A DNA stretch of 64,000 bases from NCBI GenBank assembly GCA_963665755.1, contig OY762445.1:146224-210223 (forward strand). Direction: 5' to 3'. This document shows, piece by piece, positions 7,846 through 22,969 of the stretch. The notes beneath the pieces were generated by a model. That model saw only the letters and a program-made list of their open reading frames with translations, was not told the origin of the DNA and did no database searches. The stretch is from a bacterium. Lineage in GTDB: Bacteria > JAAXHH01. Numbering within the stretch: the stretch's first letter is position 1; every line of letters starts with the position of its first letter. The translations under genes were made by a program, and so were the position numbers.

Positions 7846-9039
7846 TTGCTTGACATCCTCCATCCCGGCGACTACTTGATTACACTGTTGTCCATCACTC
7901 TACATGCGCTGTTCCCGGTCATGCCCATGATGTCCAAAAACACCTTTACCTTCGACCGCGTAGTCCGGATCGCAATCGCCGCGGCGGTGATCTGGCTGCT
8001 GATTACCTTCATCGCCTACGTGAGCGACATTCTCATACCTTTCGCGGTCGCGCTGCTGCTCGCCTACCTGATTAACCCCCTGACTTCCTGGCTGCAGCGA
8101 AATCTGCCCTTCAAGCACCGGATCGTCTCCGTATTGCTGAGCCTGACGGTTATCCTCGGCGGCGTGGTCCTTTTCCTGGCGATTCTGATTCCCGTGATCG
8201 TGACCGAGGTCGTGCATATGCAAAATCTGCTGACCGGAGTGGTGAACACGGATCAGTGGCAGGCGGCGCTGCAGGACTACGTGCCCGAGGAAATTCGGGT
8301 CTACCTCACGGATCTCGTCGCGTTTGAAGAACTCGTCCAACTGCTGAACTTCGAAAACATCAGGGTTTTCTTCCAGCAGATCCTGCCAGGCATCTGGGGC
8401 GTGTTCTCGGGTACAGTCAGCTTCGTGATCGGGTTGGCGGTCGTGATCATCATATTGCTCTACCTGGTCTTCATTCTCCTTGATTACGACGAGATCACCG
8501 AGGGGTGGAAGGAATTGATCCCCGATCAATACAGGCAGGTGGTGCTGGACGTTGTATCCGACTTCACGACGGCCATGCGGGTCTATTTCCGTGCCCAGGC
8601 CCTCATAGCCTTTATCGTGGGATTGCTTTTCGCCCTGGGTTTCTGGTTGATCGGGCTGCCGATGGGTATTCTGCTGGGCCTTTTTATCGGCCTGCTCAAC
8701 ATGGTGCCCTACCTGCAGGTCGTGGGGCTCATTCCGTCCGTACTGTTTGCGATAGTTGCGTCGCTGGGTGCGGGCGAGAGTATCTGGATCATGCTGGGTC
8801 TCGTGCTTGCCGTGTTTGCCGTCGTGCAGGTAATTCAGGACGCCATACTGGTTCCCCGGATCATGGGAAAGGTGACCGGGTTCAATCCGGCCGTCATCCT
8901 GCTTTCCCTGTCCGTATGGGGCAAGCTGCTGGGCATTCTGGGACTGCTGATCGCGCTTCCGGCGACGTTCCTGATCCATTCGTACTACAAGAGATACCTG
9001 AAAGGCGCACTTACGGCGGAGAAGCCGGTTCAGCCTTGA
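7846..9039 (+). CDS. AI-2E family transporter (PerM/UPF0118-type permease)
   Basis: About 8 TM helices in the typical AI-2E arrangement. Start uncertain (ATG at 7846 or 7924). Confidence 0.7.
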   Translation: MLDILHPGDYLITLLSITLHALFPVMPMMSKNTFTFDRVVRIAIAAAVIWLLITFIAYVSDILIPFAVALLLAYLINPLTSWLQRNLPFKHRIVSVLLSLTVILGGVVLFLAILIPVIVTEVVHMQNLLTGVVNTDQWQAALQDYVPEEIRVYLTDLVAFEELVQLLNFENIRVFFQQILPGIWGVFSGTVSFVIGLAVVIIILLYLVFILLDYDEITEGWKELIPDQYRQVVLDVVSDFTTAMRVYFRAQALIAFIVGLLFALGFWLIGLPMGILLGLFIGLLNMVPYLQVVGLIPSVLFAIVASLGAGESIWIMLGLVLAVFAVVQVIQDAILVPRIMGKVTGFNPAVILLSLSVWGKLLGILGLLIALPATFLIHSYYKRYLKGALTAEKPVQP

Positions 9040-9123
9040 TTGGGCCATGACGACGAAGCGCTGCAACTCCCCGTTCAATAACCGACACATCCTGGGAAAC
9101 AGACTACGAATAAGGAGCAGTAA

Positions 9124-9618
9124 ATGGAAAGAATCTCCTGGGACGAGTATTTCCTTCGCATCGCATATGCCGTTTCGGCGCGTTCGAATTGCATTCGCAG
9201 GCATGTCGGCGCCGTGATCGTGAACGACAAGATCATTACCAGCACGGGCTACAACGGTACCCCCATGGGCATACCCAACTGCTTCGACGGTGGATGCAAA
9301 CGATGCAACTCGGACGGGCCGTCCGGGGCGAACCTCGACGAATGTGTCTGCATGCACGCCGAGGAAAACGCCATCCTTTTCGCCGCGCGCCACGGTTCGT
9401 CCACGAGCGGCGCAACGCTTTACGCCACCAACAAACCCTGCCTGGGCTGTCTTAAAAAGTCCATTCAGGCGGGGATTCGCCGGGTTGTTTATGCGGAGCA
9501 GTACACCTACACGAAATCCATTGAGGAAGTGTATGACTGGCTGGTGGAAGAATCCGGTATCGAGATGGTCGAATTGAAATTGGACGCGAGTCCTGAAGCG
9601 GTCGTGAATACCGCCTGA
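9124..9618 (+). CDS. dCMP deaminase (ComEB-type cytidine/deoxycytidylate deaminase)
   Basis: AAGGAG SD. Zinc motifs HAEENA and PCLGCLK. Confidence 0.8.
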   Translation: MERISWDEYFLRIAYAVSARSNCIRRHVGAVIVNDKIITSTGYNGTPMGIPNCFDGGCKRCNSDGPSGANLDECVCMHAEENAILFAARHGSSTSGATLYATNKPCLGCLKKSIQAGIRRVVYAEQYTYTKSIEEVYDWLVEESGIEMVELKLDASPEAVVNTA

Positions 9619-9712: not shown

Positions 9713-10450
9713 TTGCATACCAGCGATCGCATAACGCAATCGGATTTCGAGTATCTCCGGCTGCAGGATACCGGGCCGGTGGGCATATCATTTTCCGATG
9801 TGTATCCCGATTACCATCCACAGGATCGCGTGGGGTTTGTTTGCCCCCGGCTGGAAGACGGTGTGCTCGGGCTGTGCGCTGCCGTCCTGGGCCTGGCGAC
9901 CGGGTTCTACGATCGGCTCCGGTCGAAAGGGAACGAATTCTTCGACTATCCACTGCACCACGCCTTCATCGGAGGGCGGGAGGCGCGGGTACGCACGCGA
10001 AGCGGGGATCTGGACCTGTCCATCGGGGAGATGGGAAGCGCCTGGGGATGGCTGGACGTCTGGCCGGAGACCAACTGGCATCTCTGCCCTGCGACTCCGG
10101 AAAAAATGCTCGAGGCGTTGTTTCGTCACCAGGTCAACCGGGTATGCTGGCCGGCTTCGTTCATGCCGGGTTCCGTAGAGAATCCGCTTTCGCATTACGC
10201 GTATAAGCTGTTGAGCGGCAGGCTGAAATCAGTCTGGTATTACGACTGCGGGGACGGGAACCTGGAAGTCCGGGCATCGGGTTCCGCGGCTGACGTCATC
10301 CAGGAGAGCCTGGAACGTCTTCCCCATGGTGCAGCGGTTAGGAACCAAGCGTCGGAAATTCCATGCGGCCCATGGATTGGAAACCATTTCAAAACAGTGA
10401 AACCCCAGGCATTTCTTGAAGATATGGCGGTCTGCTTTACTGATGATTGA
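9713..10450 (+). CDS. hypothetical protein
   Basis: 245-aa ORF with genome-typical GC3 codon bias. No recognisable motif. Sits 100 bp upstream of the PhyH-HEAT gene on the same strand. Confidence 0.4.
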   Translation: MHTSDRITQSDFEYLRLQDTGPVGISFSDVYPDYHPQDRVGFVCPRLEDGVLGLCAAVLGLATGFYDRLRSKGNEFFDYPLHHAFIGGREARVRTRSGDLDLSIGEMGSAWGWLDVWPETNWHLCPATPEKMLEALFRHQVNRVCWPASFMPGSVENPLSHYAYKLLSGRLKSVWYYDCGDGNLEVRASGSAADVIQESLERLPHGAAVRNQASEIPCGPWIGNHFKTVKPQAFLEDMAVCFTDD

Positions 10451-10550
10451 ACCAGTGGCTGGACGAGAAATCGGATTTCGGACGAACCACAGAAGGCCTG
10501 TCATGATGACCGTCAGGACAGGCCGCTGTGCAAGAAAGGAGAAGTGATTC

Positions 10551-11951
10551 ATGGTGGACAGATCCTACCTGTTCGATGACGACGCCATGCGCGACTTTAT
10601 CGTAAACGGCTACCACGTGATCAACGTGGATCAGCCGGTTGCGCTCCACGACGGGATTTACGAGAAGACGAAGGCGATCATCGACGATGACGGGAATCCG
10701 GGAAACAACCTGTTGCCGCGTGTGCCCGAGATCCAACAGGTCTACGACGATCCTGCCGTTCAAGGCGCACTGACGAGTCTGCTCGGACCGGACTACGTCA
10801 TGCACGCTCACCGCCACCCGCACGTGAACCCGCCGAACAGCCGTGGAGGCAACTGGCACAAGGACAGTTACTGGGGTTACAGCAAGGTGCGGGATCACCA
10901 TCCGCGGTGGATCATGGCCATGTACTACCCCCAGGACACCCCGGTTGAAATCGGACCGACGGGGGTAATACCCGGCAGCCACTACTTCGAGTCCCGCGAA
11001 GAGACCGTCGGAGGGAACGGGTCGGTCCCAGATGGATTCCCCGCGAGCGGCAAGGCGGGAACCATTACCATCATACACTTCGACCTCTGGCACCGGGCGT
11101 TTCCGAACGCAACGGACAAGGTCCGCTATATGATGAAATTCCAGTTTACGAGAATGTCAGAGCCGAACCACCCCTGCTGGAACAATCAACGAGACGAAAT
11201 CGACCTGGGCGACCTGTCGGACGATCCCCGGAGCGCCATGTGGCGGAACATGTGGCACTGGCTTGCCGGAAACGGGTCTGCGGGAACCAGGCGGGAAGGC
11301 GAGGAACACGTCGAAGCGCACGCCCAGGACCTGACGCATGAACTCGAACAGAAGCGTTTGCACGCGGCCTATAGCCTGGCGGAGTGCGGAGAATCCGCGC
11401 TACCGCATCTCCTCGAAGCACTGCAACACGAAAGGGATGAGGTCCGGCGTGAAGCGTGCTACGGACTAAGCGCGCTGGGTACCGCCGCCGTCGAACCGCT
11501 GGTATCCCTGCTCGGACACGAAAACGAACGCGTCAGGGGTTACGCGGTTTACGCCCTTGGAGACATCCGGCACCACAACCCTTCGGTTACGGGGCACCTC
11601 GCGGGTCATACAGACGACCCATCGCCTTTTGTCCGGCAGAACGTGGCCGATGCACTGGGCCAGATCAGGCTGGCTGCGGATTCGTCCGTTCCCGCGCTGA
11701 TCGGTATGATGAAGGACGTGGATGAGCAGGTTCGGTCCAGAACCGCCTACGCGCTGGCCCGATTCGGAGTCGAGGCTCAGACGGCCATTCAAGACCTTGC
11801 GGATGCGTGCTACGATGAAAACCGGTATGTACAGGGGCATGCCGCCGTTGCACTCGAACAAATCGGCACGCCGGAAGCCCTGCGCGCGCTGCTGCACTGG
11901 CTGCAGGCCTCGCGGTGGTGTCCCCTGACGACTGCGAAGAGCACGTTTTAG
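10551..11951 (+). CDS. phytanoyl-CoA dioxygenase (PhyH) family domain fused to C-terminal PBS-lyase-type HEAT repeats
   Basis: AAAGGAGAAG SD. N-terminal about 220 aa with H-x-D (NWHKDSY) and a distal His (FDLWHRAF) in PhyH-like context. C-terminal about 200 aa with at least five repeats of the x-VR-x-x-A-x-x-ALG-x-IG type (EVRREACYGLSALG, ERVRGYAVYALGDI, PFVRQNVADALGQI, EQVRSRTAYALARFG, RYVQGHAAVALEQIG). Confidence 0.75.
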   Translation: MVDRSYLFDDDAMRDFIVNGYHVINVDQPVALHDGIYEKTKAIIDDDGNPGNNLLPRVPEIQQVYDDPAVQGALTSLLGPDYVMHAHRHPHVNPPNSRGGNWHKDSYWGYSKVRDHHPRWIMAMYYPQDTPVEIGPTGVIPGSHYFESREETVGGNGSVPDGFPASGKAGTITIIHFDLWHRAFPNATDKVRYMMKFQFTRMSEPNHPCWNNQRDEIDLGDLSDDPRSAMWRNMWHWLAGNGSAGTRREGEEHVEAHAQDLTHELEQKRLHAAYSLAECGESALPHLLEALQHERDEVRREACYGLSALGTAAVEPLVSLLGHENERVRGYAVYALGDIRHHNPSVTGHLAGHTDDPSPFVRQNVADALGQIRLAADSSVPALIGMMKDVDEQVRSRTAYALARFGVEAQTAIQDLADACYDENRYVQGHAAVALEQIGTPEALRALLHWLQASRWCPLTTAKSTF

Positions 11952-12036: not shown

Positions 12037-14007
12037 CTACCAGTCGTGTATCATGTGGCCCTGTCCCGGATAGAACAAGGCATCCACAAAGAACGACAGA
12101 ACGATACCCAGCGTGTAACCGAGCAGGACGCCAAGGAAGAACCGCTGACCCGTGCGGTAGGTGCTGGTCCCGACCTTCAGCAGAATGAACTTGGCGAGCC
12201 ATGCGAGGAAGACGGACAGGATCGAGTCCCGGATATTGCTGGCGAAACAAATGGCGAAGCCCACCGGGGCGAGGGGCCACCAGACCAGCCAGTGCCGGAG
12301 TTTCAGCAGCAACAGGAAGGTCGCCGCGCCAGCCGCCATGAACCAGGGCTCGTTCTGACCCAGGGACAGCGGGTTCTTCATCCAGGTTACGATCTCGTCG
12401 TAGTAGTTCTTGTTGAGCCCGTCGAACGCCCCGCCTCCGAAGTTATAGGCTCCAATCGCATAGCCCGACTGTATCGAGTAAGCCAACGCCGTGACCATGC
12501 TTACGAGAAAGGTGGCGGCGAGTACGAGCAGCAACCCTTTCTTCCTCGGCCAGAATCCGTCCGCCAGGCGATCTGCCAGCACGACCGAACCCATACCCAG
12601 CCCGCGCCAGTTCCGCGCATACGCGCTGGCCAGGCCCAATGCCGTAAGGCTCGGCGCGGATACGTTCCCTGAACCCAGGGACAGCACCGTGATCTGGTGT
12701 GCGTTCACGGGCAAATCGAGGAACACCACCCCTGTTTCGGCGATCACCTTTGTCGTGCCGAAGTATAGAATGAACAGAAAGGCCAGGAACACCGCCATCA
12801 CCGAAAACGCCAGGCCGGACTGGTACAGCCATGCGCAGATAAATACGGATCCGAGCAGGAACCCGATCACGGCGGTCCTGTAGGATACGAGTTCCTTTGT
12901 ATCGTCCAGTCCGGAATCCCGCCCCATCGCTTTCTTGACTACGCCCGCCAGGTGCCGCCTGGCGGCCCAGAGACTGTAACCCACGTACACCAGGAATCCG
13001 CCGAAAAACTGTGCGTTGACGCCGCCGCTGCCGCCGGGACCGCTGCTGGCCGTGTTGAGTCCTATGTAATTCAGTGCGCCGATTTCGAGCAGCCCCAGCA
13101 TGAAGAAGACCCAGATGCTCAGCAGGATATCTACGTTGATAAAGTAGCCGAAGCCGAGCATGTAGGGGCTGATACGCAGGGGAATGGAGGGGAACATCGG
13201 ACTCAGTTGGAGCGGAGTCTCGAAGAAGGTGCCGACGGGGAGCTGCGGTACGATATGGGCGAAGGACACGATATTCCAGAGTGCGATGGCCAGCGCGAGG
13301 ACGAACCCGATCTGGAACAGGCGGTCATAGACCAGTTTCGGCCAGCGACCGGGCGACTGGTCCCCGGTTATGAGTTCGAGGGGTACCTGGACGAGGGGAA
13401 AAGTTAGCCGCTCGTACTCCACCCACTGTTTTCTGAATATGGTGGCCACGCAGGCGCCGACGACGAATATCGCGACGAAAAAGCTCATCCACCAGGCGAC
13501 GGGGATGATCCACGGGGACCAGGGTATGGCGCCTCCCGGAGGCAGCCCTTCGTAAAACCATCCCATGGCGTTGTTCTGGTTGCTCGCCACGAGCCATTCC
13601 GGCAGAAAGGGGTGGAAGAGCTCCACCCACTGGTTTTCCGGCTGGGCGAAGTAAAAGGGCGTCGATATGATGGTCAGGAAGTACGACACGAAGGCCTTGC
13701 CGGGTATGAGGCTCGAAATCAGCAGGATGCAGAAGATCAGCGCGAGTTCTCTGCCGGTGAAGGCGGCCCGTTGGTACATACCGCGTACAAGAGGGTTGTA
13801 CACGAAGGTGACGAGCAGAAAGAGAGCCAGGGCGGAAATGGGCAGGTGGGCCACCGACATGCGGGACGTGTGCAGGATATAGGTCCCGTACGTCACCCAG
13901 ATGTTGAGGATGATGGCCAGGACCAGTCCCGTGGCGAGGGACCTCGACGTGATCACGGAGGTTGGCGGGGTTTCCCTTGTCGGTATATGCTTGGTTGTGT
14001 CAGTCAA
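12037..14007 (-). CDS. large polytopic membrane protein of unknown function (paralog of 47334-49337)
   Basis: 656 aa with at least 14 predicted TM segments. Shares an ERLTFPL motif and overall architecture with the 674-aa protein at 47334-49337. Immediately downstream (63-bp gap) of the sulfatase gene. Confidence 0.7.
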   Translation of the reverse strand: MTDTTKHIPTRETPPTSVITSRSLATGLVLAIILNIWVTYGTYILHTSRMSVAHLPISALALFLLVTFVYNPLVRGMYQRAAFTGRELALIFCILLISSLIPGKAFVSYFLTIISTPFYFAQPENQWVELFHPFLPEWLVASNQNNAMGWFYEGLPPGGAIPWSPWIIPVAWWMSFFVAIFVVGACVATIFRKQWVEYERLTFPLVQVPLELITGDQSPGRWPKLVYDRLFQIGFVLALAIALWNIVSFAHIVPQLPVGTFFETPLQLSPMFPSIPLRISPYMLGFGYFINVDILLSIWVFFMLGLLEIGALNYIGLNTASSGPGGSGGVNAQFFGGFLVYVGYSLWAARRHLAGVVKKAMGRDSGLDDTKELVSYRTAVIGFLLGSVFICAWLYQSGLAFSVMAVFLAFLFILYFGTTKVIAETGVVFLDLPVNAHQITVLSLGSGNVSAPSLTALGLASAYARNWRGLGMGSVVLADRLADGFWPRKKGLLLVLAATFLVSMVTALAYSIQSGYAIGAYNFGGGAFDGLNKNYYDEIVTWMKNPLSLGQNEPWFMAAGAATFLLLLKLRHWLVWWPLAPVGFAICFASNIRDSILSVFLAWLAKFILLKVGTSTYRTGQRFFLGVLLGYTLGIVLSFFVDALFYPGQGHMIHDW

Positions 14008-14069
14008 TCAGGTCTCGCATCAGTTTATGGATATTGGATCAGCGGGCCGTCGCGGCGATTTTCAATGCA

Positions 14070-15419
14070 TCAGGCAGACTGTCGTTCCCGCCATTCGACC
14101 TCCATGGGATCGGGGATGGCGTAGGGTTTGACGCGTTGTTCGTGCAGCCACTCCGACAGGTAGTGATCCATGCGTTGCTGAATCTCCGGCCGTTCCCGGG
14201 CCAAGTTGTACGTCTGATTCGGGTCGTTACGCATATCATACAAGGCCACCGGATCGAACCGGTAACCGAAGTCATCGTACGTCCTGACCATGAGATGGCC
14301 GGGTGTCCGCACCGCCCGTTGCAGCGTGTACAGGCCGTGACCCCAGACCAGGTAGTCGTGCAGCTGGCAGCGTCCGGTCGCAAGTCCTTCCGCGAAAGAC
14401 CGGCCGTCATAGTATTCCGGTACTTCCCCGCCAATCAGGTCGATCAGCGTGGCGCTGAAATCCACATTGTACAGCAGGTCGTCACTAGAGGATCCTGGCG
14501 GCGTAGTCCCCGGCCACTTGATGATCAGCGGGACCCGGTGTATGCATTCGTCGGCGCAGACGTGATCCCCGTAGATGCCGTGCTCTCCCATGGCCTCGCC
14601 GTGATCCGCCGAGATAATGACCGCCGTGTCGTCCAGGCCGCCCAGGGCGTCCAGTATCTGCTCCACGTGGTGGTCGGTGTAGCGGATCTCCGTGTCGTAC
14701 CCGGTCACCATGTGATTCAGATCGCGGGTATCCCGGATGGCGTCCGGCATGTTCGGCGTGGGACTGGGCCGGTCGTGGGGAAAGAGGTGGGACGCGGTGA
14801 ACCAGCCGTCGATGTCCTGGTGGCCGCGGATCGTCTCGTTGTCCGGCCAACTCACAGCCGGCGGATGGGCCGCCATGCGGTCGAACCGGTCGCGGGGCGC
14901 TTCGTAGACCCGGTGCGGGTCCCAGTAGTTGATGTACAGGAAGTAATCGTCCCGGCCGCCGTTCGCGGCGATCCATTTCAGTACGGCTTCGTTGACCTCG
15001 TTCGCCGTCTCGTCCCCCGTCTTCAGGTTGGGCGAATGGAACTCCGACCAGCCCAGCCCGAACCAGGTCGCGCAGTGCCGGGTGGGGAAGTTGGAGAAGC
15101 AGACCGTGTCGTAGCCGTGTTGGCGCAACTTTCTCTGAACCAACTGGTTCCGTTCGTCGGGTCCGCCGTAGCGCTGCTCCAGGATGTGCAGCTTGGAAGC
15201 GGGACCGCCGTGGGTCACCACGCCGTTGTTGATCCCGAAACGGCCGGTTATCCAGCCGTGCCGCGAAGGCATGCAGGGCGAATCCGCGCAGTAGTACCGG
15301 TCGAACCGCATCCCCTGCGCGGCGATTTCATCGATGGCGGGCGAGGTGGGCCGGCCGTAGCCGTAGCAACCCAGGTGGTCGGGCCTCAGACTGTCGATGT
15401 CGAAATAGACGATGCGCAA
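14070..15419 (-). CDS. Cys-type sulfatase (alkaline-phosphatase superfamily), no signal peptide
   Basis: DSLRPDHLGCYGY metal-binding N-terminus. C-x-P-x-R FGly motif (CMPSRHG). No N-terminal signal sequence. Confidence 0.8.
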   Translation of the reverse strand: MRIVYFDIDSLRPDHLGCYGYGRPTSPAIDEIAAQGMRFDRYYCADSPCMPSRHGWITGRFGINNGVVTHGGPASKLHILEQRYGGPDERNQLVQRKLRQHGYDTVCFSNFPTRHCATWFGLGWSEFHSPNLKTGDETANEVNEAVLKWIAANGGRDDYFLYINYWDPHRVYEAPRDRFDRMAAHPPAVSWPDNETIRGHQDIDGWFTASHLFPHDRPSPTPNMPDAIRDTRDLNHMVTGYDTEIRYTDHHVEQILDALGGLDDTAVIISADHGEAMGEHGIYGDHVCADECIHRVPLIIKWPGTTPPGSSSDDLLYNVDFSATLIDLIGGEVPEYYDGRSFAEGLATGRCQLHDYLVWGHGLYTLQRAVRTPGHLMVRTYDDFGYRFDPVALYDMRNDPNQTYNLARERPEIQQRMDHYLSEWLHEQRVKPYAIPDPMEVEWRERQSA

Positions 15420-15457
15420 GGAGGATTACCGGAATCCTGTGTATATAAGGGAGACCG

Positions 15458-16729
15458 CTACGCCGCAACGGCCTTGTCGATGATTACCTTCATCTTGTCG
15501 CCGTGTTTGTGTCGGCTGGCGGCTTCGATTAGGGCTTCGATGGGTAGAAACCCGTTGTCCTGCAGCCAGTGGGCTATGGCGGCCAAAGCGGCGCCTTTCG
15601 GTCCGCCCGTCTTTCTGAAATCCCCGGTCACCACGTTGGACGGACCGGGCGGACCGAGCGGACCGGGACACCCTCCAAGCTCGGTACCAAGCTTCTTGTC
15701 CGCGATCACCAGGGTATGGCCGCCGATGCGGGACCGCACCTTGTCCAGCCCATCCTGCGATATGACGATCATGATGTCGGGACAGTCGATCCCGGTGTAA
15801 TGGATGGGGTTCCTGGAGAGGATGACTTCCGCGACGGAAAACCCCGTGCCGATCGTGATGGGGTAGTCGCCCTTCTTGGTGGCGGACAGGCCGGCCGTAA
15901 TGCCCGCGGTGGACAGCAGGTCACCCGCGGACTGGATGGCCTCACCGGCCGAACCTGCGACGATGATCTCCAGGCGGCCGTCCAGCGGCGCATCGCATGT
16001 GCGTTCGATTGGTTTAAGGGCGTCAAAGAGGGACTGGCCCATCAACCGGTGCGGCCGGGATACAGGCCGCTGGTTCCTTGTTACCACGCTCTCGTAGTCC
16101 GCCGTATCATGGAGTTCCTGTACTTTCCTCATTCCGTATGCGGGACACATCTCCACGATTTCGATGAGGGAGAATCCAGGTGTGGACAGGGCCTCCTTCC
16201 AGAGCTCGGAAGTGTCCTTGCCGATGAAAGTCCGCGCGGTGTACGCCGCGCCGGCGTTGTGCGCCAGGGCGCAGATGTCGTATCCTGGCACGGCCGATTC
16301 CGGTCGTTCCGGTTCCTTGAACTCGGTGGAGGACAGTCCGCTGGTCTGGCCGCCCGTCATCCCGTAAACCATGTTGTTCTGAACCACGAGGGTGAGATCC
16401 AGGTTGTGCCGTGCGGCTTCGAGCAGGTGCTGCAGGCCGATCGTGGCGCCGCCGTCGCCCTGCAGGGCGATGATCTTCTTCTCCGGATGCTCCAGGCCCA
16501 TGCGGATGCCCATGGCCAGGGCGACCGCCCGGCCGTGGAGCCCGTGAATGGTGTGGCAGGTCAGGAGCGGATCCACGAGCCCCGTGCAGCCGATGTCGCT
16601 TACCACGATGACGTCGAGGGGGTCCACGTCCATGTCCGCGAGCGCCTTGCTCATGGATTTGTTGGCGACGGTATGACCACAGCCCGGGCAGTAGGGCATT
16701 TTCAGGTCATTCAGGATGGTTTCCTGCAT
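15458..16729 (-). CDS. 2-oxoacid:ferredoxin oxidoreductase beta subunit (TPP-binding) fused to gamma domain
   Basis: N-terminal YCPGCGH with a GDGG TPP motif. C-terminal about 190 aa POR-gamma-like domain. 19-bp overlap with the alpha gene. Confidence 0.8.
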   Translation of the reverse strand: MQETILNDLKMPYCPGCGHTVANKSMSKALADMDVDPLDVIVVSDIGCTGLVDPLLTCHTIHGLHGRAVALAMGIRMGLEHPEKKIIALQGDGGATIGLQHLLEAARHNLDLTLVVQNNMVYGMTGGQTSGLSSTEFKEPERPESAVPGYDICALAHNAGAAYTARTFIGKDTSELWKEALSTPGFSLIEIVEMCPAYGMRKVQELHDTADYESVVTRNQRPVSRPHRLMGQSLFDALKPIERTCDAPLDGRLEIIVAGSAGEAIQSAGDLLSTAGITAGLSATKKGDYPITIGTGFSVAEVILSRNPIHYTGIDCPDIMIVISQDGLDKVRSRIGGHTLVIADKKLGTELGGCPGPLGPPGPSNVVTGDFRKTGGPKGAALAAIAHWLQDNGFLPIEALIEAASRHKHGDKMKVIIDKAVAA

Positions 16730-17844
16730 TGCCTTACTCCTTCCGCGATCTCCTGCGGGGTGATCATATTGCCGATTTTGTTGACACCGAAGACCCGGCC
16801 GTCCTGACGGTTGCCATAGAGCAGTTCCCGAAGCAGGCCGGCGATATTCTCCTCCACGACGACTATGTGCTCGTATGCGTCAAGCAGTTCGTAGATACGG
16901 GGCGGTACCGGCAGCAGCGTTTTCATGACCAGGAGCGAGACGGAGTCGCCGCCCGAGCGGAGTGAACCGACCGCTTCCCTGGCGGCTTCCGCCGAGATGC
17001 CGTAGGTCAGGATGACCGTATCGGCGTCTTCGACCCGATCGTGGTCGAAATAGGTGTAGTCATCGATACGCTGTTCGATCTTGTTCTTGAGCCGTTCGGT
17101 ATTGCCGAGGGCTTCGGGGCTGTTCTTCTGCGTAATACCTTCCATGTCATGGGTAGATGAATTCAGCCGGACCTGGTGCAGGTCGTTGCCCAGAGGCAGG
17201 AATGGCGGCGCCAGGTTCCCGTTGACCCCGTAGGTCTTGTATTCCCCGTTTCCTTCGAACACGTGGCGTTCCGCCCGCTGCACTTCCCGCAGGCCGGAAA
17301 TGTCCATGTTCTGGTTGGTCATGACCATTTCTTTCGAGGTCAATAACACCACCGGGGTGCGGAGGTTTACCGACGTATGCACGCTGGCGGCCGCCATGTC
17401 CCAGCAATCGTTCAGATTCGAGGGACAGAACACCGGAATCGAATACCCTCCGGAGATGCATCCCCTGAGGAGGAGCAGATCCCCCTGGCCGCCCGTCGTG
17501 GCCGAACCGGTACTCGGCCCGAGGCGCTGGGCGAGGATAATGACCATGGGCAGTTCCATCATGAAGGACATGTTGATGGATTCGATCATCAGGGCGAAGC
17601 CTGGAAAGGCGGAGGCGGTGACGGGAAACACGCCCGAAGACGAAAAACCGGCGGACCACTGCAGCGCGGTGATCTCGTCCGGCGCCTCCAGGGCGATGGG
17701 AATGCGCTGCTTGGCGCCCGCGAAGAGCCAGTTGACGGGCGTGATGGGGTATCCGATGTAGGCGCCCACCCCGGCCCGTGCCATCGCCTCGATGATCAGT
17801 CTGGATCCGTCCAGGAAGACCATGCGTTCACCGGCAGCAGTCAT
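16711..17844 (-). CDS. 2-oxoacid:ferredoxin oxidoreductase alpha subunit
   Basis: KorA/PorA-like N-terminal domain (GYPITPVN) and core domains; 377 aa. Confidence 0.8.
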   Translation of the reverse strand: MTAAGERMVFLDGSRLIIEAMARAGVGAYIGYPITPVNWLFAGAKQRIPIALEAPDEITALQWSAGFSSSGVFPVTASAFPGFALMIESINMSFMMELPMVIILAQRLGPSTGSATTGGQGDLLLLRGCISGGYSIPVFCPSNLNDCWDMAAASVHTSVNLRTPVVLLTSKEMVMTNQNMDISGLREVQRAERHVFEGNGEYKTYGVNGNLAPPFLPLGNDLHQVRLNSSTHDMEGITQKNSPEALGNTERLKNKIEQRIDDYTYFDHDRVEDADTVILTYGISAEAAREAVGSLRSGGDSVSLLVMKTLLPVPPRIYELLDAYEHIVVVEENIAGLLRELLYGNRQDGRVFGVNKIGNMITPQEIAEGVRQCRKPS

Positions 17845-17859
17845 CGTCGTGTTCTCCAG

Positions 17860-19875
17860 TTATTCCTGCATGGATTCCGCCACGATCTCGGCGATATCCC
17901 GGACCCGCATGGGTTCGCCGGCCCGCTTGTTGGCGTCGTTCATCATTCTGGCACAGAAGGGACAGCCCACGGCCAGGGTGTCCGCCCCGGTTTCTCTGGC
18001 CTCCCGGAAGCGATTATCACTGACCGCTTCCCTGCCTTCTTCTTCTTCTTTCCAGACCTGGGCGCCGCCCGCTCCGCAGCAGAATGACCGGTTCCTGCTC
18101 CGGGCCATCTCCACCAGGTTTGGCCCGGCGGCCGCCAGCGCTTCCCGAGGCGCTTCGTACTCGCCGCCGTGGCGTCCAAGATAACACGGGTCGTGATAGG
18201 TTGTCCGCGTCTCATCCTCTCCGTTTACCGCGATCCTGCCGTCGTTCCTGAGATCGGCGATGAGCTGCGTGTGGTGCATGACCTCGTAACGCCCGCCCAG
18301 CGCGCCGTACTCGTTCTTCAGGGTATGGAGGCAATGGGGGCAACCCGTAACGATGCGTTTACGGTCGGCGCCCGCCGCGTTCAACGTTTCGATGTTGCCT
18401 TCGGCAGCCATACTGAAAAGATACTCGTTTCCGGCCCTTCGCGCCAGATCTCCCGTGCAGGACTCGTCGTTTCCGAGCACGGCGAAGTCTACACCGGACC
18501 GGTGCATGACCGTGGCGATGGCCCGTGCCGTGTCCCGGGCGCCCGGGTCGAATGCGCCGGCGCAGCCGACCCATAGCAGCACGTCGTAGTCCGGATTCTC
18601 CGCGACGGTCGGCACCTTGAAATCCAGCTCCCTGGTCCACTCCATCCGGTCTCCGGCCATTTGCCATGGATTGCCGTTCCGTTCGATTCCGGTAAAGGCA
18701 CCTTTCAGTTCATTCGGAAAGGCACTTTCCATCAGCACCTGGTTCTGGCGCATGGAGAGGATGTCGAACATGGGTTCGTTGCCGACGGGGCAGGCTTCGG
18801 TACAGGCCCCGCAGGTCGTACACGCCCACAACGCGCTTTCGCTCATGGCGTAGGTGAGTAGTGGTTCTTCGTCGCCTCCACCCGTCGCCAGGGATTTCAT
18901 GTGATCGCGAAGGTGGAACCGCTTGTTCACCTCGAGTGCAGCGGGAGACAATTCCTTGCCGGTGGCATAGGCCGGGCAGGCGTCCTGGCACCGGTTGCAC
19001 ATGATGCAGGCGAAGGCGTCCGTAATGTGGGTCCGGTTCAGGTCGGTGATCCGGGCGGCGCCGAACTGCTCTACGGTTTCATCCTCTAAATCCAGGGCAT
19101 CCATCGTACCGGGACTGCTTCGATCCGGGGACGTCATCAGGTTGAAGGGGCCCATGAACAGATGGGCATGTTTCGAATAGGGGAACCAGGGCAGGAAGGC
19201 CAGCACCAGCCCGACGGCGATCCACCAACTGGCATGCAGGCCTGCCGTCAGGAATGAAGGTTCCAGATCCGCCCAGAGTCCGGCTGCCAGCGCGGCAACA
19301 GGCTGCCAGGGGTCCGGTCCGTGTATGGCGATGTCGAAAGAAGCGCCCAGCAGCCGGAAACCGACGTGGCCGAGGATGAAAAACCCCACGATCAGGGAAT
19401 CGCGCTTGATGCCGTCCACCGCGCCCGGGTGCAATTTAACCTGCGGAGCGACGTCGAGGGTCCTGGACTTCACGATGAATCGTCGGATGAGCAGGACAGC
19501 CATACCTGCCAGCACCGCCGCGGTCATTAGATCGACGAGGAGCCGATATATCCGCCCGGCGGCGTTCTCGCCCGGGAAAACGAAGCCGGGTACCATGCCT
19601 TCCAGCACGTCTATCAGGTTGACTGCCACGTAGAGGATAAACCCCCACGCGATCGCCGTGTGGGCCAGGGAAACGAAAGGCCGGTTTCGGATCATGTTGT
19701 TCTGGCTGACCATTGCCTTGATCCCGGTCATCAACCGGCCGGCAGGTCTGTCCCAGGACAGGCGCCCCTGGCCTCGCGTAATTATGCGGATCATGCGCCG
19801 AAAGGTGACGGATGCCAGGTACAGCGAGACCACTGCGACGATCGCAAAGAGGATTTTTTCGATGGGAGAAAGCAT
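17860..19875 (-). CDS. membrane-bound Fe-S oxidoreductase: HdrE/DsrM/NarI-like TM domain fused to an HdrD/DsrK-like module (2x 4Fe-4S + 2x CCG); ETF:quinone oxidoreductase-like (EMO-type)
   Basis: N-terminal 5-6 TM helices with conserved His. CIMCNRCQDACP and CTTCGACTEACP ferredoxin motifs. Two CCG-type cysteine clusters (GCAGAF; CCGAGG). Sits directly upstream of etfA. Confidence 0.75.
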   Translation of the reverse strand: MLSPIEKILFAIVAVVSLYLASVTFRRMIRIITRGQGRLSWDRPAGRLMTGIKAMVSQNNMIRNRPFVSLAHTAIAWGFILYVAVNLIDVLEGMVPGFVFPGENAAGRIYRLLVDLMTAAVLAGMAVLLIRRFIVKSRTLDVAPQVKLHPGAVDGIKRDSLIVGFFILGHVGFRLLGASFDIAIHGPDPWQPVAALAAGLWADLEPSFLTAGLHASWWIAVGLVLAFLPWFPYSKHAHLFMGPFNLMTSPDRSSPGTMDALDLEDETVEQFGAARITDLNRTHITDAFACIMCNRCQDACPAYATGKELSPAALEVNKRFHLRDHMKSLATGGGDEEPLLTYAMSESALWACTTCGACTEACPVGNEPMFDILSMRQNQVLMESAFPNELKGAFTGIERNGNPWQMAGDRMEWTRELDFKVPTVAENPDYDVLLWVGCAGAFDPGARDTARAIATVMHRSGVDFAVLGNDESCTGDLARRAGNEYLFSMAAEGNIETLNAAGADRKRIVTGCPHCLHTLKNEYGALGGRYEVMHHTQLIADLRNDGRIAVNGEDETRTTYHDPCYLGRHGGEYEAPREALAAAGPNLVEMARSRNRSFCCGAGGAQVWKEEEEGREAVSDNRFREARETGADTLAVGCPFCARMMNDANKRAGEPMRVRDIAEIVAESMQE

Positions 19876-19933
19876 CGGCGTCCTGCGATCTCGATGTGCC
19901 GCCGAGTGAAGACGCGATGCACGGTGTGCCGGA

Positions 19934-20920
19934 TTACCGGCCCAGCCGTTTCTTCACTTCTTCCGCTATGGCGGGCAGGTAGCTGAACAGGTCGCCGGCG
20001 ATACCGTAGTGAGCGTACTTGTAGATCGGCACGTCGGCGTCCTTGTTGATGGCAACGATCACACGGGCGTTTTTCATGCCCGCCAGGTGCTGAATCGCAC
20101 CGGAGATCCCACAGGCAATGTACAAATCGGGCTGTACCGTTTTCCCGGTCTGGCCGACCTGGTGGGCATAGGGGATCCAACCGGCGTCCACCGCGGCCCG
20201 GCTCGCGCCGAGCGCGCCGCCCAGGGCGTCAGCCAGTTCCCGTACTGGCTGAAAGCCCTCCGGTCCGCCCACGCCGCGGCCGCCGGAAACGATGATGCTT
20301 GCTTCGGTCAGGCTGACCTTGCCGTCCGCGGTCGCGACGGACTCCACCCGGGTTGGGATATCGTCTTCTGCCAGGTCGGCAGGAATGTCGACGGCTTCCC
20401 CGGTCCTGGTTTCATCCCGGGTGGCGGGTTGGAATACATTGCGCCGTACCGTGATGATCCGGTGTCCGGTCCCTGTGAATTTAATGGTGGAAACCAGGTT
20501 GCCCACCAGGGCCGGTCGGACCGCGACCAACTGGTCTCCCTCGATGTGCAGATCCGTGCAGTCCGGCGCCAGGCCCGCATCGGTGAGGGCGGCGACATAG
20601 GCCGTTAGCTCGAGGCCGGCCGTACTCGCCCCCGCCAGGATTACGGTGGGCGGTTCGTTCTCCAGTATCCGCGCCAGCAGTTTCGCATAGGGCTCCACCC
20701 GGTAACGGCTCAGAGAAGCGTCTTCCGTGGTATATACGCGGTCCGCGCCGGCTTCGATGGCCTGCCTTGCGATATCGCCGACCTGGTCGCCGAAAACGAC
20801 GGCGGTCAGGGATCCGCCGAGATCCCCGGCGACTTTCACCGCGGCGGCCATCGCCTGCCAGACGATCGGGTCCGCCTGCCCATCCTCCTGCTCAATCCAT
20901 ACGAGTACGTTGCTTGCCAT
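19934..20920 (-). CDS. etfA: electron transfer flavoprotein alpha subunit
   Basis: Canonical EtfA N-terminal fold and C-terminal FAD-binding domain; follows etfB by 15 bp. Confidence 0.85.
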   Translation of the reverse strand: MASNVLVWIEQEDGQADPIVWQAMAAAVKVAGDLGGSLTAVVFGDQVGDIARQAIEAGADRVYTTEDASLSRYRVEPYAKLLARILENEPPTVILAGASTAGLELTAYVAALTDAGLAPDCTDLHIEGDQLVAVRPALVGNLVSTIKFTGTGHRIITVRRNVFQPATRDETRTGEAVDIPADLAEDDIPTRVESVATADGKVSLTEASIIVSGGRGVGGPEGFQPVRELADALGGALGASRAAVDAGWIPYAHQVGQTGKTVQPDLYIACGISGAIQHLAGMKNARVIVAINKDADVPIYKYAHYGIAGDLFSYLPAIAEEVKKRLGR

Positions 20921-20935
20921 CTGAGATGTTTCCGC

Positions 20936-21727
20936 CTAAATGACCTTTTCTTCCATCAGCCGGTCTACCAGGTGCCTGGCCGCGTCTGCGGGATCGCCAT
21001 CGATCATTTCGACATTCCCCTCCCTGATTGGGGGAAGCTCCGCCTGCCAGGCGACCTTCGAAGCACCGGCACCTACAGCGGACGCATCGAGACCGAGATC
21101 TTCACATTTCCAAATGGGAATACTGGCCCTGGCCGCCTTGCGAATGCCGATGAGGCTCGGGTACCTGGGCTCGTTGATCTCCTTGACGACGGTGATCAGG
21201 GCCGGAAGGCCGCTGGTGACCGTTTCCCGGGCACGCTCCAGCAGGCGTACGGCCGTGATGGTCCGGGCCGACGGGTCCAGGTTCTTGAGATCCGCCACGT
21301 AGGAGATGAGCGGGACGCCGAGCAAGGCCGCGATCTGCACGGCCGTCGCGGCGGTATTGCCGTCTATCGCCGCCCTGCCGCCCACAATCAGATCGAATGC
21401 ACCGATCCTGCGGATGGCGGCGACCAGGATGCGCGCCGAAGTAAGGCAGTCGCTGTCCGCCATGACTGGGTCGGAGACAAGAATGGCTTCATCCACCCCC
21501 ATGGCCAGGGCGGTCTTCAACGCGTCGGCGGCTTCGGGAGGTCCCAGGCAAAGGGCGGTCACCTTGCCGCCATGCTCCTCCCGGGTCTGTATGGCCGTCT
21601 CCAGGGTGTATTCGTCCCAGGGATTGACGATCCGCGGTCCGCCCTCGGCGGAGAGTCTCATGCCGTCCATGGCGGCGGACAACTGTGCCGTATCGGGCGT
21701 CTGCTTCACCAGGGCGATGATATTCAA
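20936..21727 (-). CDS. etfB: electron transfer flavoprotein beta subunit
   Basis: Canonical EtfB sequence features; 263 aa. Confidence 0.85.
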   Translation of the reverse strand: MNIIALVKQTPDTAQLSAAMDGMRLSAEGGPRIVNPWDEYTLETAIQTREEHGGKVTALCLGPPEAADALKTALAMGVDEAILVSDPVMADSDCLTSARILVAAIRRIGAFDLIVGGRAAIDGNTAATAVQIAALLGVPLISYVADLKNLDPSARTITAVRLLERARETVTSGLPALITVVKEINEPRYPSLIGIRKAARASIPIWKCEDLGLDASAVGAGASKVAWQAELPPIREGNVEMIDGDPADAARHLVDRLMEEKVI

Positions 21728-21766
21728 CTAAACGTTTCCTTGTCATCACAGTACGGCTGTACGTGG

Positions 21767-22969
21767 TCAGTTCTGCCAGCAATCCGGATCGTAGCCGGGC
21801 ATTTCGCACCGGAGCGGCCGGTCGGTCCGGTTGCCGAACACGTAATCAGCCTGCATGAGCTGGTGTATCTGCGACGTGCCCTCGTAGATCACGGCGCTCT
21901 TGCTGTTGCGCAGATGGCGTTCCACGTCGTATTCGTCGGAGTATCCGTAGGCGCCGTGCACCTGCACCGCGTCGCTGGCCGTGGCGAAGGCCGATTCGGT
22001 GCAGTACCACTTGGCCATGCTCGTCTCGCGTGTGTTCCGTACGCCCCGGTTCTTAAGCCAGCCGACCTTGCGCACCGCCAGTTCGCCCAGGTCGATACGC
22101 TGCTTCATCTGGGCGATGAGTTGTTTCACGAGTTGATGGTCGCCGATAGGCTGGCCGAAAGTCCGCCGCTGGCGGGCGTACGACACGGACGCTTCCAGGC
22201 AGTATTTCATCAGGCCGACAGCACCCGCCGCGACGGTATAGCGGGCATTGTCCAGGCAGGACATGGCGATTTTGAATCCTTCTCCTTCTTCTCCAAGCCG
22301 ATGGGTTTCCGGCACGGGGACCTCGTCCATGTTGATCCAGCCCGTGTTGCTTGCCCGCACCCCCATCTTGCCCTTTATGGTACCGGTGGTCAGTCCTTCC
22401 CAGCCGCGCTCCAACAGGAATGCAGTGATACCGCGCGTACCCTCTTCCTGACTGGTTTTAGCAAAAACGAGGAACCTGTCGGCCACGTCCGAAAGTGTGA
22501 TCCACATTTTCTCGCCGCTGACCAGGTAGGTATCACCCTTCTTCCGTGCACGGCTGGTCATGGCGGCCACGTCTGATCCCGCGCCGGGCTCCGTCAGCCC
22601 GAAACAGGCGATGTGCTCACCCGTGGCCAGGGAAGGGAGGAACCGTTCCTTCTGCTCCTCCGTGCCCCACTGAAAGAGGGGCAGGGCGTGCAGCCCAAGG
22701 TGGACGGCAATCGTCTCCCGGATCGAAGAGTCGGCCCACTCCAGGCCCTCCGAAAGCAGTCCCAGGGAAATAAAGTCCATGCCGGCCCCGTCGTAACGAA
22801 CCGGGAGGCAGATACCCATGAATCCCTGGGCGGCCATCTTGGGCAGCAATTCGTGGGGAAAGGTACCGTTTCGATCATGTTCCCTGATGGTCGGAAGGAT
22901 CTCGTTGCGGGCGAAATCGTAGACCATCCGTTCCACCATTTTCTGTTCTTCGCTTAACTCGAATTCCAT
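21767..22969 (-). CDS. acyl-CoA dehydrogenase
   Basis: ACAD N-terminal, middle and C-terminal domains ([17 protein letters not shown]). First gene of the minus-strand operon that continues into etfBA. Confidence 0.85.

Follow-up and report, generated by a model that had tools for sequence, protein, structure and literature searches.

A bacterial DNA stretch of 64,000 nucleotides (contig OY762445.1 of assembly GCA_963665755.1, positions 146,224 to 210,223; hereafter the window) encodes a protein of 466 amino acids (aa) in which a PhyH-type Fe(II)/2-oxoglutarate (2OG) oxygenase is followed by phycobilisome (PBS)-lyase-type HEAT repeats. This fusion is the standard architecture of a large family that spans several phyla, and the window copy is an ordinary member of it. 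The HEAT repeats form, together with the C-terminal tail of the protein, a module that is permanently attached to the oxygenase and functionally constrained. As the best, but still tentative, explanation of this module we propose that solenoid and tail act as a built-in clamp or lid for substrate recognition, and that the substrate may be a bulky polar metabolite which is handled via a DUF6785 membrane protein and, in the clade of the window, a partner protein with an LmbE fold.

The oxygenase domain and its HEAT module

The fusion gene and its parts are located as follows:

10551..11951, plus strand: fusion gene, 466 aa, ATG start (read as an open reading frame, ORF)
10551..11285, plus strand: catalytic domain, residues 1-245, with the PhyH-clade double-stranded beta-helix and a Trp-rich linker helix
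10689..10730, plus strand: family-specific loop (D/E)-G-N-P-G-N-N-x-L-P-R-x-P-E, residues 47-60 (alignment)
10800..10823, plus strand: His ladder M84-H85-x-H87-R88-H89-x-H91 (alignment and model)
10857..10865, plus strand: codons of H103-K104-D105, the proximal iron ligands (HxD) (alignment)
11091..11126, plus strand: codons from H181 (distal iron ligand) to R192 (Arg for the 2OG C5-carboxylate, H+11) (alignment)
11301..11912, plus strand: cap helix and six PBS-lyase-type HEAT repeats, residues 251-454
11913..11951, plus strand: C-terminal tail R455-W-C457-P-x-T-T460-x-x-S-T-F and stop codon (alignment)

Residues 59-192 matched the PhyH model of Pfam (PF05721) with an E-value of 2.5e-14 and 54.5 bits, the gathering cut-off being 22. 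Residue conservation was read from an alignment of 32 homologs with 42-97% identity, and the presence of motifs was counted in 120 full-length homologs. The facial triad H103, D105 and H181 was invariant in the alignment, and so was R192, eleven residues after H181. In pairwise HMMER alignments W-H103-K-D105 fell on the WHQD of ThoJ and the WHSD of EctD, and W-H181...R192 fell on MH...R in EctD and WH...R in SptF, the segments that hold the distal His and the 2OG-binding Arg. The predicted double-stranded beta-helix is close to the fold of solved members of the PhyH clade. Judged from its sequence, the fusion protein appears to be a catalytically competent, active-looking Fe(II)/2OG oxygenase of this clade, and since no signal peptide was found in the N-termini it is predicted to be cytoplasmic.

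Fold, HxD...H triad and the Arg at distal His+11 are shared with the PhyH-clade enzymes (PF05721: ThoJ, EctD, SptF/AusE/AndA/TlxI, SnoK, KanJ, EvdO/HygX, human PHYH and PHYHD1), but the fusion is only 13-20% identical to the solved members and its family alone carries three further features, each present in 117-119 of the 120 homologs. The first is the GNPGNN loop at residues 47-60, in which G48, N49, G51, N52, N53, L55, P56 and P59 are invariant columns (119/120). The second is a ladder of four His with an Arg on the strand before HxD, whose residues are invariant or nearly so; in the AlphaFold2 (AF2) model it lies on strand 83-93 with all four His on one face, and it was found in 117 homologs and in neither of the aligned ThoJ and EctD sequences. 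The third is S-Y-W-G immediately after HxD. Behind the core, solved PhyH enzymes have a short lid, whereas the fusion has a HEAT solenoid of 220 residues and a conserved tail.

The C-terminal half was recognised as HEAT-like by searches with hidden Markov models (HMMs): residues ~269-450 matched HEAT_2 (6e-34), HEAT (3e-19), HEAT_EZ (3e-18) and HEAT_PBS (5e-16) of Pfam. In the AF2 model 13 helices over residues 251-454 make up a cap helix and six repeats of ~31 residues. The repeat HMMs (PF13646/PF03130) and the paired-helix alpha-solenoid both identify the repeats as PBS-lyase-type HEAT. With the PhyH match and the invariant triad, this bears out the sequence-only reading, a note made earlier from the letters of the window, in its claim that both domains reside in one gene. 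Indeed, a hidden stop or frameshift near residue 230, where the note had placed a possible split into two genes, was ruled out: the reading frame is unbroken, and more than 120 homologs of 42-97% identity are co-linear with it at lengths of 452-508 aa.

For the whole fusion the AF2 model reached a predicted local distance difference test score (pLDDT) of 89.4 and a predicted template modelling score (pTM) of 0.90. Such a pTM for a two-domain chain implies that the catalytic and the HEAT half (~230 residues each) are modelled in a fixed mutual orientation. In cross-clade pairs the fractional identity was 0.58 in the catalytic core, 0.32 in the linker, 0.44 in repeats 1-3, 0.52 in repeats 4-6 and 0.66 in the last 12 residues; the tail is therefore the best-conserved segment (66%) and repeats 4-6 are the most conserved HEAT repeats, and both are conserved to the same degree as the catalytic core. 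R455, C457 and T460 of the tail are invariant in the 32 homologs, and the tail motif is present in 117 of the 120. Four residues of repeat 6 stand at positions that in alphaRep proteins are hypervariable binder sites on the concave face; of these, R425 and Y426 do not vary at all in the alignment, and G429 and H430 hardly do.

These data also bear on the idea that the HEAT domain is a scaffold for oligomerisation, stability or docking, for example onto the cytoplasmic face of DUF6785/DUF6784, while specificity lies wholly in the PhyH domain. A solenoid that is packed on the catalytic domain, as the pTM implies, does not project freely, and the conserved residues include positions that normally contact ligands and are hypervariable. 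On the other hand, a flexible tail with low pLDDT and the highest conservation is typical of docking motifs, and the fusion matched the NCBIfam model PRK13800, a flavoprotein with a HEAT tail, consistent with other bacterial enzymes that bear C-terminal PBS-HEAT domains. DUF6785 is immediately adjacent in three lineages, as detailed below, but most loci have none within 10 kb. On balance we consider a pure scaffold improbable.

Every one of the 32 homologs has an acidic HEAT domain, with net charges from -2 to -25 and a mean of -12. One alternative is a nucleic-acid-directed oxygenase: tRNA, rRNA or DNA would be held by the solenoid, in the way of AlkD and QueG, for oxidation or demethylation of a nucleoside by the PhyH domain, in the way of the PHYHD1-type 2'-O-methyl-nucleoside demethylases. 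This is very improbable because such acidity is the opposite of a nucleic-acid-binding surface, despite the precedent of PHYHD1 for nucleoside-directed PhyH activity (PMC12709175). Moreover, PHYHD1 is no closer to the fusion than about 20 other PhyH enzymes, and the deaminase gene near the window copy is absent from other lineages.

Two known HEAT systems were considered as relatives of the module. In deoxyhypusine hydroxylase (DOHH), which has no double-stranded beta-helix domain, a di-iron centre is held inside the solenoid by four conserved His-Glu motifs, whereas the metal site of the fusion is a classical mononuclear triad in the PhyH domain. Only two H-E dipeptides are present in the HEAT domain (QHERDEVR, 292-299, and GHENERVR, 322-329), and H293 and H323 are replaced by N, D, G, S, T, L or A among the 32 homologs. 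A DOHH-like site at H293-E294 and H323-E324, for which the sequence-only reading had already seen no support, is rejected since these dipeptides are not conserved. Membership of the bilin lyases or NblB was rejected as well: the CpcE, CpcF, CpeY and NblB equivalogs scored 16-35 bits against NCBIfam cut-offs of 220-600, and the resemblance to bilin lyases exists at the level of the repeat only. Compared with CpcE/CpcF, NblB, Escherichia coli YibA, MTH187 and the alphaRep consensus, the repeats of the fusion are joined to an oxygenase and run out into an R-W-C-P tail that is unique to them, and, in distinction from the bilin lyases, the host phyla are mostly non-phototrophs.

Extent and distribution of the fusion family

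A search of 5.8 billion proteins gave more than 1,267 matches, the best 120 of which were all full-length PhyH+HEAT fusions of 452-508 aa with 42-97% identity; their annotation goes no further than "HEAT repeat domain-containing protein" or "phytanoyl-CoA dioxygenase". The closest locus encodes a fusion 97% identical to that of the window, which identifies the source of the window as a Gemmatimonadota-type metagenome-assembled genome (MAG). In a scan with one genome per species, at least 538 genomes had a relative. The relatives occur in Gemmatimonadota, Latescibacterota, Poribacteria, Zixibacteria, Armatimonadota (with the cultured Armatimonas rosea), Capsulimonadales and Planctomycetota; many are from MAGs of sponges or corals, and in the sampled loci many of the Gemmatimonadota and Latescibacterota are sponge- or coral-associated or aquatic. 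When residues 1-245 alone were searched against 1.84 billion cluster representatives, 279 clusters were found at E <= 1e-30. Since a HEAT domain is carried by 107 of the 150 best of these N-domain clusters (~71%) and most of the other 43 are short, with junk-like ends, and look truncated, the fusion is the rule in this PhyH subfamily and not a local oddity.

PhyH oxygenases were described as the most expanded protein family in Poribacteria, with functions that are mostly unassigned (Kamke et al., PMC3909097). Our literature search found no paper with both PF05721 and PF13646 and nothing on the fusion architecture, which is already present, unremarked, in public databases. In four Poribacteria loci (L048, L050, L060 and L062) a second fusion gene lies in tandem ~1.7-2.5 kb downstream of the matched gene (460 and 472 aa in L048), which suggests duplication and divergence of specificity. 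Fusions 88-89% identical to that of the window are found in loci that share their synteny and are labelled Latescibacterota in some cases and Gemmatimonadota in others (L005, L006, L008 and L022 versus L001, L003 and L007), so that at least one set of these MAG labels is probably wrong.

The upstream protein and the gene neighbourhoods

The features next to the fusion gene are:

9713..10450, plus strand: upstream gene, 245 aa, TTG start, predicted LmbE/PIG-L-like fold (read as an ORF)
10488..10530, plus strand: stem-loop in the 100-nt spacer between upstream and fusion genes (RNA folding)
10535..10541, plus strand: ribosome-binding site AAAGGAG of the fusion gene (sequence and spacer alignment)
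12037..14007, minus strand: DUF6785+DUF6784 polytopic membrane protein, convergent on the fusion gene (Pfam, E 4.6e-115 and 8e-16)
14070..15419, minus strand: Cys-type sulfatase with C-M-P-S-R motif and SGSH_C domain (Pfam Sulfatase 2e-37, SGSH_C 1e-15)

The upstream protein belongs to a real conserved family with 48 homologs, mostly from Gemmatimonadota, that share an invariant M-H-T-S start and the motifs D38-R39, F-Y-x-x-x-R70, F-F-x-Y-P-x-H82, W-G-W-L-D115-V-W-P-E, W146-P and L-K172-S-V-W-Y. It had been called unassignable, and in terms of sequence this holds: there was no Pfam or NCBIfam match at E <= 0.01-0.1, profile-based searching of PDB chains at E <= 10 gave none of the LmbE family, and by these three routes no link of the family to LmbE structures was found. 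It does not hold for the predicted fold, which is of the LmbE-type Rossmann-like kind and makes the protein assignable as LmbE/PIG-L-like at the level of a model. In LmbE proteins such as MshB and TT1542 zinc is bound by an A-H-P-D-D motif after beta-1 and a downstream His. In the upstream protein the loop after beta-1 (residues 39-44) reads P45-x-x-E48-D49-G50; in this comparison by sequence the acidic pair is conserved and the position expected for the zinc His is taken by R, L, H, Q, Y, C, V or D. Because of this variable residue the protein is read as an LmbE fold with a probably non-canonical, possibly lost, metal site, and the invariant H2, H82 and D115 could substitute for the zinc-ligand His. 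In comparison with the LmbE/PIG-L proteins (MshB, the BshB-type BC1534, diacetylchitobiose deacetylase, TT1542, Dbv21, LnmX and the hydratase GalB) the upstream protein has no PIG-L Pfam match, and its family conserves other residues, namely H2, D38, R39, H82, D115, K172 and several Trp.

The neighbourhoods of 80 related loci were surveyed by clustering the genes in flanks of 10 kb. The upstream gene was found directly upstream and on the same strand in 18 of them, all in the clade whose fusions are at least 53% identical to that of the window, and there the pair persists where other synteny has decayed. Divergent LmbE-fold homologs that are not beside a fusion gene occur with a sugar ABC transporter and Sulfatase/SGSH_C, with GH127, or with rhaM/UxuA and a stand-alone PhyH. 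The co-conservation suggested as a check on the sequence-only reading is thus real within this clade and absent from the other loci, and an obligate partnership was rejected on these grounds. In the P0017 contig, from a relative with 65% identity, genes with FGE-sulfatase domains flank the pair (one intact with 295 aa, and fragments of 77 and 155 aa), and GatCAB is inserted upstream of the pair, likewise in L082.

The AAAGGAG site of the fusion gene is conserved in the spacer alignment of the relatives. The spacer (10451-10550) folds with -34.7 kcal/mol (z -3.3); its stem-loop has no T-run and no Rfam match, is kept in the closest relatives with some changes in the stem and is gone where the spacer is ~50 nt (L003 and L007). 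It could be an element for mRNA processing or stability. Rfam and tRNA scans of the window gave no matches, and a promoter and terminator scan gave background level only. Within the fusion gene runs an antisense ORF of 218 aa (10437-11093, minus strand), with counterparts that cluster in 59 loci; most likely it is no gene but a shadow ORF that stays open because the sense frame is conserved and GC-rich. Upstream of the pair, an AI-2E transporter gene and then a ComEB/dCMP-deaminase-like gene are encoded at 7846-9618 (plus strand). This synteny is retained (L086, 3295-4947) as far as a marine contig from TARA with an LmbE-fold protein of only 52% identity, which reflects either functional linkage or slow rearrangement; the TARA contig keeps the whole block of SBP_bac_5, AI-2E, dCMP deaminase, LmbE-like, fusion, DUF6785 and sulfatase genes.

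DUF6785+DUF6784 was the only neighbour family that recurred across phyla (27 of the 80 loci), and our literature search found no paper mentioning DUF6785. In three lineages it is the immediate neighbour of the fusion gene, in differing orientations, and elsewhere in the flanks it hardly ever occurs. The two genes converge in the Gemmatimonadota clade, with 18-157 bp between them, and also in a Gemmatimonadales MAG; in one Poribacteria clade they diverge directly, 160-405 bp apart, or lie within a few kb of each other. The genomes have several copies of DUF6785, among them adjacent paralog pairs, convergent in L092 (6001-9923) and in tandem in L093 (6001-9978). The pair in L092 closes a string of Sulfatase/SGSH_C, AP_endonuc_2, SDR and GFO_IDH genes, and one paralog is convergent on a stand-alone PhyH.

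In the window, the DUF6785/DUF6784 and sulfatase genes are part of a minus-strand string of eight tightly spaced genes (12037-22969) that mixes them with energy metabolism: acyl-CoA dehydrogenase, ETF beta, ETF alpha, an Fe-S/CCG oxidoreductase, and the alpha and beta/gamma subunits of a 2-oxoacid:ferredoxin oxidoreductase. The sulfatase, which has no signal peptide, is presumably cytoplasmic and possibly linked in function to the fusion. In A. rosea the fusion gene is flanked by a ROK gene and, 42 bp downstream, by a Sulfatase/SGSH_C gene; the three belong to a longer run on one strand in which rhamnosidase, SASA, GDSL and GFO_IDH genes are found as well. A linkage with sulfatases as a general rule was rejected, since it is seen in two lineages only and the sulfatases are not orthologous. 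A pan-family operon was not found either: apart from DUF6785+DUF6784, clustering of the 80 loci gave only clade-specific housekeeping genes such as gyrase, shikimate kinase, YjeF, an M20 peptidase, an MBL-fold protein and a cyclase.

Proposed substrate recognition and its meaning for the family

The mechanism that we favour, tentatively, starts from the replacement of the usual short C-terminal lid of PhyH-clade enzymes by the Trp-rich linker helix, the six HEAT repeats and the tail. Solenoid and tail would clamp or cover the active site, a placement that we infer from packing and conservation, and the GNPGNN loop together with the His ladder (H85/H87/H89/H91 and R88) would give shape to a pocket suited to a substrate that is bulky, polar and possibly anionic. 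Since the recurrent neighbours are DUF6785, the LmbE-fold protein and sulfatases or sugar enzymes, the substrate may well be a metabolite and not a protein. Its uptake or handling would fall to the adjacent DUF6785/DUF6784 membrane protein, and in the Gemmatimonadota clade the co-transcribed LmbE-fold protein would take part in its processing; cytoplasmic sulfatases and enzymes that modify sugars recur in this setting. The chemistry could be a hydroxylation or a cleavage triggered by hydroxylation, such as oxidative deamination, dealkylation or desulfation.

Several observations weigh against this mechanism. The tail that should close the clamp has low pLDDT in the AF2 model. In most lineages (Latescibacterota, one Poribacteria clade, Capsulimonadales and planctomycete-like bacteria) no DUF6785, sulfatase or LmbE-like gene was found within 10 kb, and the neighbours are unrelated housekeeping genes. 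The minus-strand string of the window is mostly devoted to energy metabolism, the linked sulfatases are mutually only 25-27% identical, and the stand-alone PhyH beside DUF6785 is only 21% identical to the catalytic domain of the fusion. Moreover, these genomes carry multiple copies of PhyH, sulfatase and DUF6785 genes and, therefore, some adjacency is expected by chance.

The sequence-only reading had suggested that the oxygenase acts on a protein or another large substrate or is recruited into a complex, and the conserved concave face of the HEAT repeats, the conserved tail and the confident packing of the domains are in line with this. Spelled out as a housekeeping-type modification enzyme, in which the solenoid clamps a protein or peptide and the PhyH domain hydroxylates a side chain, the idea is the main rival of the metabolite reading and a serious one, if somewhat less probable. 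Against it, no candidate substrate gene co-occurs across lineages, the distribution is patchy over a few environmental phyla and not universal, and the recurrent neighbours are the membrane protein, the LmbE-fold enzyme and sulfatases or sugar enzymes. Acidity of the solenoid does not speak for a peptide clamp, as it is generic to consensus PBS-HEAT repeats. The structural neighbours of the catalytic domain are all small-molecule or natural-product enzymes, which act on free small molecules with the exception of carrier-protein-dependent halogenases. Taken together, gene neighbours and structural neighbours favour a metabolic substrate at least as strongly as a protein.

A far-fetched extension is a HEAT-guided, protein-modifying oxygenase that would constitute a new bacterial system of post-translational modification. 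In its bold version the acidic solenoid would clamp the unfolded C-x-P-x-R segment of nearby cytoplasmic Cys-type sulfatases and the PhyH domain would hydroxylate the C-beta of the cysteine, whereupon the product would collapse to formylglycine; this would be a third, Fe/2OG-dependent route of sulfatase maturation besides FGE and the radical-SAM anSME. In a milder version the oxygenase would be docked via HEAT repeats and tail on DUF6785/DUF6784 and form a unit for transport-coupled oxidation.

In sum, the fusion defines a coherent subfamily of PhyH oxygenases with a hard-wired HEAT module and three diagnostic marks, the GNPGNN loop, the MHxHRHxH ladder and the R-W-C-P tail. With A. rosea it has a cultured representative, and the LmbE-fold protein, the DUF6785/DUF6784 membrane protein and the cytoplasmic sulfatases are testable partners. 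For two unannotated families, the LmbE-fold upstream family and DUF6785, the analysis gives a first structural lead. We know of no earlier alpha-solenoid that serves as the specificity module of a 2OG oxygenase; if solenoid and tail do recognise the substrate, the fusion would be the first, and since repeats of the alphaRep type lend themselves to redesign, the combination is attractive for enzyme engineering.

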